From positions 1 through 21,772 of the forward strand of contig CAMAVZ010000029.1 of NCBI GenBank assembly GCA_945861645.1: a DNA stretch of 21,772 nt, given 5' to 3'. The translations under genes and the position numbers were made by a program. This DNA comes from Opitutus sp. GAS368 (GTDB lineage Bacteria > Verrucomicrobiota > Verrucomicrobiia > Opitutales > Opitutaceae). Each line of letters starts with the position of its first letter. Positions within the stretch are counted from its first letter, which is position 1. A model generated the notes under the pieces. That model had not been told where the DNA came from, did not search any database, and saw only the letters and a list, made by a program, of their open reading frames with translations. Positions 8,738 to 12,256 of this stretch are shown one piece after another.

Positions 8738-10942
8738 TTAGGACTGGGCTGGCGCCGGTGCTTCAGCCGCGGGGGCCGCTTCGCCACCGCCGGCCGCTTG
8801 CTTTTGCGCCTCGAGATCAGCCATCGCGGCCCTGCGGCTGAGACGGACCTTACCCGAACGCTCATCGATGCCCACGCATTTGACTGTGATGGAGTCGCCC
8901 ATCTTGGCGACATCTTCGGTGCGGCGCACGCGGAAGTCGGCTAGTTCGGAAATATGCACCAGGCCTTCCTTGCCGGGCATACATTCCACGAACGCCCCGA
9001 ATTCTTTCACCCCAGTGACGCGACCGGTGTAGATCTTGCCGATTTCGATTTGGGAACCACCGCCGCAAAGGGCGTCGATTTCCTGCACGGCGCGGTTCAT
9101 AGCGTCGGCATTATTCGAATAAATGAAGACCTTGCCGGAATCATCATCGGAGATATCGATCTGCGCCCCGGTTGTTTCGGTGATGCGGCGGATCGTCTTG
9201 CCGCCCGGTCCGATGAGCAGACCGATCTTCTCTGGATCGATCTGAATCGTTTGGATGCGGGGCGCGTAGGGGGAGAGGTCTTTGCGGGGAGCAGGAAGCG
9301 AGGCGAGCATCGACTTGAGGATCTCAATGCGAGCGTCGCGCGCTTGATACACCGCGGTCTTCGCGATTTCAAAAGGCAGGCCGTTGATTTTCAGGTCGAG
9401 CTGAAAGCCCGTGATGCCCTTGGTCGTACCGGCGATCTTGAAATCCATATCGCCGAAATGATCTTCCTCCCCGAGAATATCGGTGATGGTCGTCCACTTG
9501 GTGATTCCACCGTTGGCATCCATTTCGGTCATCAGACCGCAGGAAATGCCGGCGACTGGCGCGATGATGGGTACGCCCGCATCCATGAGCGCCAAGCAAC
9601 CGCCGCAGATGGAAGCCATCGAGGTCGAGCCGTTGGAGGCCATGATTTCAGAGACGACACGGATTGAGTAAGGGAACACATCCTCTGGGGGGAGAATCGG
9701 CACCAGCGAACGCTCGGCCAGCGCACCGTGACCAATTTCGCGGCGGCCTGGGCCAATGAAGCGACCGGCTTCACCGACCGAGAACGGCGGGAAATTGTAA
9801 TGGAGAATGAAGCTTTTCGACGTCGCGCCGCCGGTGAGTCCGTCCATGTCCTGCGCTTCTTTCGTCGGCCCGAGGGTAACGATGGCAATATTTTGAGTAT
9901 CACCGCGCTGGAACATGGCGGAACCATGCACGCGCGGGAGGACGCCCACTTTGGATTGCAGCGGGCGCAGGGCCTTCGCATCGCGATGATCTGAGCGCAC
10001 GCCCTTGGCGAGCACGGTGGCGCGGTAGGCTTTGTATTGGAGGTCTTCGAAGACGACGTTGAGGTCGACATCGGTGAACTTGCCTTCGCCCAACTCGGCA
10101 ACGAGAGCGGCCTTGGCCTCGTCTTTTAATTTTTTGACGTTGGCCGAGCGAATGTTTTTCTCAAAGCCGAAGATGGCGGTGGAAACGCGATCTGCCGGGA
10201 CGACGCGCTCAATGATGGCGCGGGCCTCAGGGGTAGCGCCGACGAGCTTGAAGGTGGCCTTGGGTTTGCCAGCCAGGACGACTAATTCCTTGATCGCTGC
10301 GATGATGGGCTGAATCGCTTGGTGACCAAAAGCCAGAGCTTCGACAAATTTCTCCTCAGAGATTTGGTCAGCCGAACCTTCGATCATCAGCATGTCCTTC
10401 GTATTGCCGACGTAGATGAGATCGAGGGCGGATGAGTACATCTGCTCGATGGTTGGGTTGGCGACAAACACGTCGTCGATGAGGGCGACGCGCACGCAGC
10501 CAATCGGCCCGTTCCACGGAATGTCAGAAATCGCGAGAGCGGCGCTGGCGCCGTTGACCATGGCGATATCGGAATCGTTGATGAGGTCGGCCGACATCAG
10601 CTGGCCGATGATCTGCACTTCATTGAGGAAACCCTCCGGAAAGAGCGGGCGGCAGGGGCGATCGCAGAGGCGGGAGATGAGGATCTCGCGCTCGCTGGGC
10701 CGGCCTTCGCGTTTGAAGTAGCCACCAGGAAAACGGCCGGCGGCGGCGTATTTATCGCGGTAGTCGCAGGTGAGGGGGAAAAAATCTTGGCCAGGGCGCA
10801 TGGTCTGAGCGACGCAGGCGGTGACGAAGACATTAGTTTCGCCGACATTGACGTTGACGGCGCCGCCCGCGAGTTGGGCGATGGAGCCGGTGGAGAACGT
10901 GAGCCCGAGACCGGGCACGGTAACATTGTGTTTCTGATTCAT
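8738..10942 (-). CDS. pnp: Polyribonucleotide nucleotidyltransferase (PNPase)
   Basis: [54 protein letters not shown] domain (IGPGGKTIR), S1 domain (EGLVHISEL). ATG at 10942 preferred. Downstream of rpsO. Confidence 0.98.
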
Positions 10943-11126
10943 ATTATGGGAGGTTGGGCCGCTCAAGGCCCGGTAGGTAGGCGACGATCAAAGACCGCGC
11001 TACAGGTTGTTTTACCATTTTCTTCGCTTTCCCTGAATCAACTCCGAGAAATTTCTATTGGCGGTCCCAGCGGGGTGGGGCGGCAAACGGAAATGTCCCG
11101 GGCGGCTGCTTCTAGTGAGGAGAGCT

Positions 11127-11163
11127 AAAACGAAGGGCAGCCCGTCGGTGGACTGCCCTTCGT
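11127..11163 (-). terminator. Rho-independent terminator or attenuator after rpsO
   Basis: Minus strand ACGAAGGGCAGTCC-ACCGAC-GGGCTGCCCTTCGT then TTT, starting 8 nt after the rpsO stop. Confidence 0.85.
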
Positions 11164-11171
11164 GAAATCGG

Positions 11172-11435
11172 TTACTTGCGCAGACTGAGCTTCTGCAGCA
11201 GGTCGTTGTATTTGGCGAGGTCTTCGCTCTTGACGTAATCAAGAAGCTTGCGACGGCGACTGGCCATTTGAAGAAGGCCGCGGCGGCTGTGGAAATCCTT
11301 GCGATGCGTGCGCAGATGCTCGGTCAAGTGATTGATTCGAGCGGTGAGCAGCGCGATCTGGACGTCGCTGGAGCCGGTGTCCTTTTCGTGGGTTTTATAT
11401 AAGGCTATGACTTCTGATTTAACGGGTTGTGACAT
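11172..11435 (-). CDS. rpsO: 30S ribosomal protein S15
   Basis: [34 protein letters not shown]; conserved rpsO-pnp synteny. Confidence 0.98.
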
Positions 11436-11464
11436 GGTTTGGATTGTTGATTACGCGATCGTTT

Positions 11465-11586
11465 GGAGGCCTTGCGGCTTCGTGCCACCCGCTTTTGGAG
11501 GGCCGGCGGCACCGTTATCGTCCGGTTACCCAGACTGACCGTGGCTGAAGTCTGCGACCAGCAGGCTTCAACTAACGCAAGGTCCC
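11465..11586 (-). promoter_or_regulatory. Structured 5' leader of rpsO (candidate S15 autoregulatory RNA)
   Basis: Closing stem CCUUGCG/CGCAAGG encloses three hairpins, one with a GUAA tetraloop. G-U pairs fit the mRNA strand. Ends about 30 nt before the ATG. Confidence 0.65.
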
Positions 11587-11628
11587 ATTAACTAAATCGC
11601 GCCCGCTGCCTGCAAGCGTTTTTTTGCT

Positions 11629-11656
11629 AGAATCAGGGAGGAGTGGACGGCGTCAA
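11629..11656 (-). promoter_or_regulatory. Candidate sigma70-type promoter for rpsO
   Basis: TTGACG-16 nt-GATTCT on the minus strand. A second candidate, TTGCAG-17-GTTAAT, lies at 11615-11587. Confidence 0.3.
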
Positions 11657-11875
11657 ATTATAGGGGGATTGGATGAACTGTCTCGGTATCCTCTTGGCCG
11701 AGACAAGGAGCCTGGTTTAAGGGATAGTCGATTTAATATATAATCACAATCGGCTATTGGGCAGTTTGTTATAAAATTAATTCCATCAATAAGATCTGCC
11801 TGTAGGCCTGATGCTATCAATGGGTAGGGTGGAGGAGCTCCTTTTGCCTATTACGCGTCTCTGGTCAGTAATTCA

Positions 11876-12256
11876 CTAACCCGTGCGCAGAGCTAATCCC
11901 TTAATGGCGGTGCAGCCGGGTACTTTTCGCAGTTTTTCAAGAATGGACTGGCGGTGCAGGAACAGTTCATTGCGGACGACCGCGTGGGAGACCAAGACCA
12001 CGAGTAAGCCTTTTTCAACCACTACGGGATGGGAGTACGCCGCGTTAGCGACGCCGACCAACTCCACCCATTTTTCACGGATACTGTGTTCGAGTGAATC
12101 GTGGCTGATGCGATATTTAATCAGCAACTCGTCGACTAGCGCGGTGAGATCGGTGGGCGTACGCCGTTTGGATCGGCTGGAGTCTTCGGGCAGTACGCGA
12201 AAGCCGGCGATGAGATTTTCAACCGCGCGGCTAAATTCTTTGGGCTCGTCAGACAT
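11876..12256 (-). CDS. dciA: DUF721/DciA family protein (helicase-loading factor homolog)
   Basis: IREKWVELVG...YSHPVVVEKGLLVVLVSHAVVRNELFLHRQSILEKL...LALRTG matches the DUF721 KH-like pattern. Confidence 0.8.
   Translation of the reverse strand: MSDEPKEFSRAVENLIAGFRVLPEDSSRSKRRTPTDLTALVDELLIKYRISHDSLEHSIREKWVELVGVANAAYSHPVVVEKGLLVVLVSHAVVRNELFLHRQSILEKLRKVPGCTAIKGLALRTG

Follow-up and report, generated by a model that had tools for sequence, protein, structure and literature searches.

A conserved structured RNA leader upstream of rpsO in the Opitutales, with ribosomal protein S15 as its candidate ligand

Background

Ribosomal protein S15 is a textbook case of a single protein whose control falls to unrelated RNA shapes in different lineages. 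In Escherichia coli the S15 pseudoknot is small and spans the ribosome-binding site, and this leader is catalogued in Rfam as the S15 family RF00114. On the rRNA itself, the S15 site as outlined in PMC4684408 consists of a three-way junction with a G-G-C triple and of a GU/GC motif located in helix 22 at a distance of about 10 pairs, and the known mRNA leaders treated there copy one or both of these parts. In the S15 leader of Thermus, according to the same account, a G-G mismatch replaces the GU/GC motif and the junction mimics the G-G-C triple (PMC4684408). For the rpsO operator of E. coli, an equilibrium between a hairpin and a pseudoknot is described in PMC3985624.

Regarding the spread of such leaders, predicted ones were added for Alphaproteobacteria, Actinobacteria and Chlamydia, the chlamydial one being a hairpin over the start codon (PMC4137082, main text). 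Candidates from Flavobacteria, Halobacteria and Methanomicrobia were added in PMC7247131, whose main text lists four confirmed and two predicted bacterial S15 leaders besides its own flavobacterial and two archaeal candidates. The main texts of PMC4137082 and PMC7247131 contain no word beginning with Verrucomicrob- or Opitut-, although their supplementary files may list further taxa. Our search of the literature on rpsO and ribosomal leaders in Verrucomicrobia found no description of a leader like the one treated here, and the literature searched together with Rfam gave no ribosomal-protein leader for the order Opitutales. Each new shape of S15 leader shows in what way RNA can reinvent a binding site.

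The present study concerns a stretch of 21,772 nt from Opitutus sp. GAS368 (contig CAMAVZ010000029.1), which as a whole is called the window below. An initial annotation, made from these letters alone, had proposed that positions 11465-11586, read on the minus strand, form a multi-helix RNA upstream of rpsO and that this RNA is a lineage-specific S15 leader. We compared the region with its relatives in the order and in the phylum, searched it against Rfam, counted covariation in aligned leaders and collected the RNA contigs that cover it.

Results

Genomic context of the leader

In the window, rpsO stands between a DciA-family gene and pnp, all three on one strand (Table 1), and the leader sits within the 440-nt gap that separates the DciA-family gene from rpsO. 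The same gap also holds an open reading frame of 55 aa (11653-11820). The motif is about 135 bases long and lies directly 5' of rpsO; as DNA it is single copy in the window's genome, where model R2 (described below) has its sole match at this place. The linker that follows the motif was inspected by sequence and is without a Shine-Dalgarno-like word, and the linkers of the relatives inspected are likewise A/C-rich. Behind rpsO there is a terminator-like hairpin, which the consensus scan left uncalled.

The initial annotation knew of no described form of this RNA in the phylum. Rfam 15 gave no match over the whole window at gathering scores, and none over 11150-11900 at E up to 10, catalogued S15 leaders included.

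Table 1. Features of the rpsO locus and its leader (positions in the window; pairing and changes counted in 56 aligned leaders)
Feature	Position	Strand	Basis or remark
pnp	8738-10966	minus	next gene 3' of rpsO
Terminator-like hairpin and UUUU after rpsO	11127-11162	minus	14-pair stem, -27.7 kcal/mol
rpsO, ribosomal protein S15, 87 aa	11172-11435	minus	open reading frame; Pfam Ribosomal_S15, E 1.5e-33
Linker, A/C-rich, G-free	11436-11453	minus	between motif and rpsO start codon
Whole conserved leader motif	11450-11584	minus	covariance model R2, 140 bits, E 3.9e-29
PB, 3' strand GAUCGCG	11454-11460	minus	partner of 11543-11537
P5 hairpin, GAAGCC-GCAA-GGCCUC	11466-11481	minus	3' arm of P1 in the initial annotation
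P4 hairpin	11482-11512	minus	10 pairs, 8 changed on both sides, 93.9% paired
PA, 3' strand AACG	11513-11516	minus	P3-P4 junction strand, 96-100% conserved in 45 leaders
P3 hairpin, GUAA loop	11520-11535	minus	6/6 pairs changed on both sides, 98.2% paired
PB, 5' strand CACGGUC	11537-11543	minus	7/7 pairs changed on both sides, 93.0% paired
P2 hairpin	11544-11572	minus	12 pairs, 11 changed on both sides, 89.5% paired
PA, 5' strand CGUU	11574-11577	minus	inside conserved word UUGCGUUAG (11580-11572)
-10-like AGTTAAT	11587-11593	minus	16-17 nt after the -35-like box
-35-like box CTTGCA	11611-11616	minus	preceded by A-rich run 11625-11619
DciA-family gene	11876-12256	minus	gene 5' of leader; Pfam E 2.4e-10

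Spread of the leader within the order

When 41 related genomes were searched at the DNA level, 21 of the 24 other genomes of the genus proved to have kept the leader together with rpsO; in the other families of the order this search matched the coding part only. Words common to the upstream regions of those families are UUGCGUYAG, CCRYGRY, AACGG, CCGGC...GCKGG and CGUG. Covariance model R1, built from 22 genus leaders (alignment A2), matches the leader in four other families with E below 1e-4, and in a search with the filters off, each of the four loci left over had its best match at the place upstream of rpsO (E 9.3e-5, 0.0029, 0.22 and 0.82). Twenty-seven leaders (alignment A4) gave a second model, R2, and covariation was counted in alignment A6 with 56 leaders.

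The initial annotation had placed a structured RNA directly before rpsO, and this is where it is met throughout, as a conserved element: each of the 45 model matches is on the rpsO strand and ends 7-25 nt upstream of the approximate start of the gene, every one of the 38 genomes with a match has a single one, and rpsO is the only constant neighbour of the motif (57/57). The genome-wide search matched 38 of 151 genomes of the window's order, a proportion obtained with strict filters and to be read as a floor, because the same model finds missed leaders in rpsO-upstream stretches; one family gave 0/15 in the phylum-wide search, yet 12 of its 12 rpsO-upstream stretches match at 42-61 bits with the filters off. 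Altogether, 18 or more families of the order have the motif.

A phylum-wide draw gave 11 matches in 151 genomes, all of them within the window's order, and among 48 rpsO-upstream stretches (12 from other orders and 36 from other classes of the phylum) none matched below E 0.03, the best one scoring 14.6 bits. Among the genomes searched, the restriction to a lineage that had been suspected from the single sequence is found at the level of the order.

Two side observations belong here. In a genome of about 0.9 Mb of the same order (L031), the leader seems to be without P3 and scores only 10.2 bits with model R1, and the motif may be reduced there. Furthermore, in another order of this class, four stretches upstream of rpsO (L104, L108, L114 and L103) have a different conserved word in common, roughly GUCGAUUAGCCGCUGCCACGAGCUAA; it is found some 30 nt ahead of the AUG, could form a UUAGC/GCUAA stem and may represent a distinct small rpsO leader in that family.

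Strand and fold of the leader

The minimum-energy fold of minus-strand 11465-11586 is the four-way junction of the initial annotation, in which a stem P1 (11586-11576 with 11476-11465) closes over the hairpins P2, P3 and P4; it has -59.1 kcal/mol and a z score of -4.27, and none of 200 shuffles matches it in stability. The initial annotation had also derived the strand from the G.U wobbles of the single sequence, an argument that proved weak because the plus strand folds almost equally (-58.4, z -3.56). What settles the strand is the comparison of relatives: a covariance model scores 22 genus loci at 125-155 bits on the rpsO strand versus no more than 16.6 bits on the other strand of these loci, and many of the conserved pairs in the 56 leaders are G.U.

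Covariation in the relatives' rpsO 5' regions, the check which the initial annotation had recommended, bears out three of its four helices. The hairpins P2, P3 and P4 all stand, each with the majority of its pairs changed on both sides (Table 1). With a rejected helix P1a counted in, 37 of 44 pairs are changed on both sides in the 56 leaders, and the whole counted structure is 87.8% paired versus 35-44% in controls with the partners shifted by 1-3 columns, in an alignment that was fitted to the nested helices and so favours them (PA, described below, is outside the model). None of 500 shuffles reaches any of the five measures, a control which overstates significance and independence since the aligned sequences are related. 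Helix P1a itself (UUG 11580-78 with UAA 11453-51), stacked on PB, is 47.8% paired in the 56 leaders and was rejected.

The closing stem P1, on the other hand, is not conserved. A P1-like stem of at least five pairs is found in the minimum-energy fold of 2 of 45 leaders, the window included, and its 3' arm belongs to a hairpin of its own, P5: the stretch from P4 to PB forms a hairpin in 45/45 relatives, with -3.8 to -18.6 kcal/mol, although the sequences, lengths and loops of the P5 stem all differ among them. Helix PB occurs in the single-sequence minimum-energy fold of 33/45. Judged by these comparisons, PB and not P1 is the conserved closing helix, and P1 is an accident of the window's lineage.

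Could the four-way junction closed by P1 nevertheless be the working structure? It is the computed minimum-energy fold of the window sequence, and an RNA contig that extends to 11625 in a relative 95-99% alike implies that the 5' arm of P1 can be transcribed in some molecules. Set against this are the 2/45 for a P1-like stem versus 45/45 for P5 and 33/45 for PB, the genus members with a GAAA loop in P5, which leave the UUGCG word partnerless there, and a conserved -35-like box, by which transcription would likely begin within the 5' arm of P1. We regard this structure as very improbable.

A softer form of the idea is that in the window's lineage the P1 fold and the consensus fold (PB, P5, PA) are alternative conformers of which S15 selects one. 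For the window sequence the computed energies of the two are indeed close by the folding model, being -59.9 for the earlier fold versus -53.9 for the nested consensus plus about -4.4 for PA, and the equilibrium of hairpin and pseudoknot set out for the E. coli rpsO operator in PMC3985624 offers a parallel. Such a switch would require transcription to begin upstream of 11586, a start so far unproven, and because most relatives lack the P1 alternative, the switch is excluded as the conserved mechanism; we consider two conformers improbable even for the window's own lineage.

The second pair of PB (11542 with 11455) is an A.C in each of the 15 leaders from the genus and near it, and elsewhere it is G.U (17), A-U (13), U.U (5), G-C (4), C-G (1) or a gap (1). 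An A.C that replaces G.U may be an isosteric wobble. P3 differs in length between families. The most conserved letters are the C-G of PA, the A-G before P2, the CC after P2 and AACGG, together with the P4 box CCGGC/GCKGG and the C-G after P4. The loop of P2, CUGGUCG, is invariant within the genus, and so is the loop together with its closing pairs, GCUGGUCGC (loop 11556-11561); in the rest of the family (L035-L042) the loop reads YGGUU and in other families it varies freely. This loop may be a family-specific contact.

A probable pseudoknot

The word at the 5' end of the motif and the strand between P3 and P4 offer a further helix, PA, which was absent from the model. PA has four pairs (11577-11574 with 11516-11513) and is 96.4% paired in the 56 leaders, and both C and G of its 5' strand are invariant (56/56). 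It shows 9 compensatory cells, versus 1.1 +/- 1.0 in shuffles (0/500), and these cells come from at least five families. One U-A pair is changed to C-G in 7 leaders of at least four families, and the same change is seen at the next pair in 2 more leaders. The limits of PA are that it counts four pairs only, two of which never vary, and that the fourth is unpaired in 8/56. As PA crosses PB, the two helices together would make a pseudoknot, which on this covariation we call probable.

Two variants of the helix were tried. A fifth pair (A11573-U11517) is paired in 21/56 only and was dropped, and an alternative register, slid by +3, was rejected: it is 87.5% paired but has no compensatory change and competes with P4.

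The P4 box and the S15 site of 16S rRNA

The initial annotation had pointed to motifs of the G.U/G-C type in published S15 leaders, and a motif of this type is present in P4. It lies in the box CCGGC (11506-11502)/GCGGG (11492-11488), whose letters are 89-100% conserved in 45 leaders and in which G11504 stands opposite G11490. This central position is G.G in 38/56 leaders, those of the window's own genus among them, and G.U in 18/56; an invariant G-C follows it, the two being pairs 9 and 10 counted from the junction. The base of P4 is flanked by the invariant letters G-G...C-G. In 16S rRNA helix 22 of a complete genome of the same genus, a G.U and then a G-C are found at the corresponding place.

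The layout of P4 and the junction thus resembles the two-part S15 site of 16S rRNA, and by this analogy it is suggestive, while the likeness of G.U/G-C to the S15 motif is a short one.

Promoter-like elements and transcript ends

Upstream of the motif, a CTTG box after an A/T-rich run was seen by eye in all 56 flanks, some 35-41 nt before the invariant C (11577), and the computed consensus has 'ttgc' at -39 to -36. In the window this is CTTGCA, which would act as a promoter element. The -10-like AGTTAAT is kept in the genus only, other families having CATTGT- or CATTTT-like words instead, and the consensus scan left it uncalled. From the box, its spacer of 16-17 nt and the weak -10-like word, we infer a transcript start near 11581-11579, at the UUGCG word, and thus likely inside the 5' arm of P1. 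A sigma-70-like GAGACA-16-TATAAT (11684-11657) was considered as well; it is absent even from the two closest relatives and was not taken to be the conserved promoter.

The leader is transcribed together with rpsO: metatranscriptome contigs from four runs cover rpsO and part or all of the leader, and parts of the window without cover by an RNA contig were not counted as evidence. In two runs from two studies the contigs end exactly at 11566, within the 5' arm of P2, and continue in letters that we take to be Illumina adapter. This end may be a library artefact, with the true start about 14 nt further upstream, or it may mark a cleavage in P2. The contig of another run, from the relative 95-99% alike, reaches 11625, which is upstream of the start we propose, and that of the fourth run stops at 11490. 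The contig that reaches 11625 also runs through rpsO into pnp despite the hairpin at 11127-11162, which suggests read-through past this terminator-like element.

These ends bear on the possibility that the fold is real and has another role, either binding another protein or a small molecule, or protecting the transcript of rpsO, and of pnp by read-through, from decay that depends on the 5' end. Such a role would suit a locus in which pnp follows rpsO and one RNA contig spans the leader to pnp, and the sharp end at 11566 in two runs could then be a processing site. Yet a strong terminator-like hairpin stands between rpsO and pnp, and rpsO alone is the constant neighbour in all 57 cases. The strongest conservation, moreover, falls on a box within a helix, one similar to the S15 motif as published, and S15 leaders of several unrelated shapes are already listed in the main text of PMC7247131. 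A role apart from S15 is therefore unlikely in our view, though less so than either of the two P1 schemes.

Discussion

The RNA upstream of rpsO in the window is a real, conserved and uncatalogued leader, as its structure, its conservation in the order, its constant position and its absence from Rfam tell. Our main reading is that it is a cis-acting leader of the rpsO mRNA, of an uncatalogued structural class, through which surplus S15 most likely acts as a translational repressor of its own mRNA, and to this we give a probability of roughly 0.7. S15 is likely the ligand of the leader, at about two chances in three.

The proposed domain is compact and is built as follows. The RNA would start near 11580, with P2 as its first hairpin; the long-range helix PB would then close the junction that bears P3, P4 and P5, and the 5' CGUU would pair with AACG of the P3-P4 junction strand and lock the domain as a pseudoknot. 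Binding of S15 at P4 and the junction would stabilise this knotted domain beside the start site, and the stabilised fold may block or trap the 30S subunit at the rpsO start. The ligand and the effect on translation are points that we infer, and for the blocking or trapping of the 30S subunit the reason is that the domain ends (11454) 18 nt before the AUG and that the G-free linker has no Shine-Dalgarno. Start codon and linker stand outside every conserved helix, which counts against a translational block. Attenuation of transcription is unlikely, since no conserved helix lies over the AUG and no U-run follows P5.

A more far-reaching proposal is that the leader is an uncatalogued S15 sensor of the whole order, in which the two halves of the 16S site, the junction and the GU/GC step one turn from it, are both copied within a five-helix domain locked by the pseudoknot; we would give it even odds. 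If it is true, the swap of G.U and G.G in P4 and that of G.U and A.C in PB across families make up a natural mutant series for the way S15 reads RNA.

The leader is large and supported by covariation, and it varies naturally (G.U or G.G; G.U, A-U or A.C) at positions thought important. RNA family databases could add the motif, with better annotation of the genomes of this order as a result, and the leader offers a simple test system in which S15 binding may be followed with reporter fusions.

With the S15 leaders presented in the main texts of PMC4137082 and PMC7247131, our leader shares the route of discovery, namely a conserved structure before rpsO in one lineage; those leaders belong to other lineages and have other shapes. 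A closer likeness is that to the leader of Geobacillus (Firmicutes), which as outlined in PMC4684408 also lies 5' of rpsO and combines a junction of several stems with a GU/GC-type motif placed in one stem about one helical turn from it, the same layout as is found in P4 here. It differs in that the RNA of the window has no match in Rfam 15, has five hairpins or helices with a probable pseudoknot, and carries G.G instead of G.U in 38/56 leaders. In this last respect the leader of Thermus thermophilus comes nearer: PMC4684408 gives it a G-G mismatch, comparable to the G.G at a similar place in the window's genus, and a junction that mimics the G-G-C triple, comparable to the invariant G-G...C-G at the base of P4. 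The number and the order of the helices are different, however, cmscan gave no match, and the likeness here is one of letters only. With the leader of E. coli, finally, which likewise gave no cmscan match, the window's leader has in common a pseudoknot and a G.U/G-C motif, a place before rpsO-pnp and a terminator, or terminator-like hairpin, after rpsO (PMC3985624 and PMC4684408, as far as their accounts of the operator go); whereas here the knot would be part of a domain that measures about 125 nt and stops 18 nt short of the AUG.
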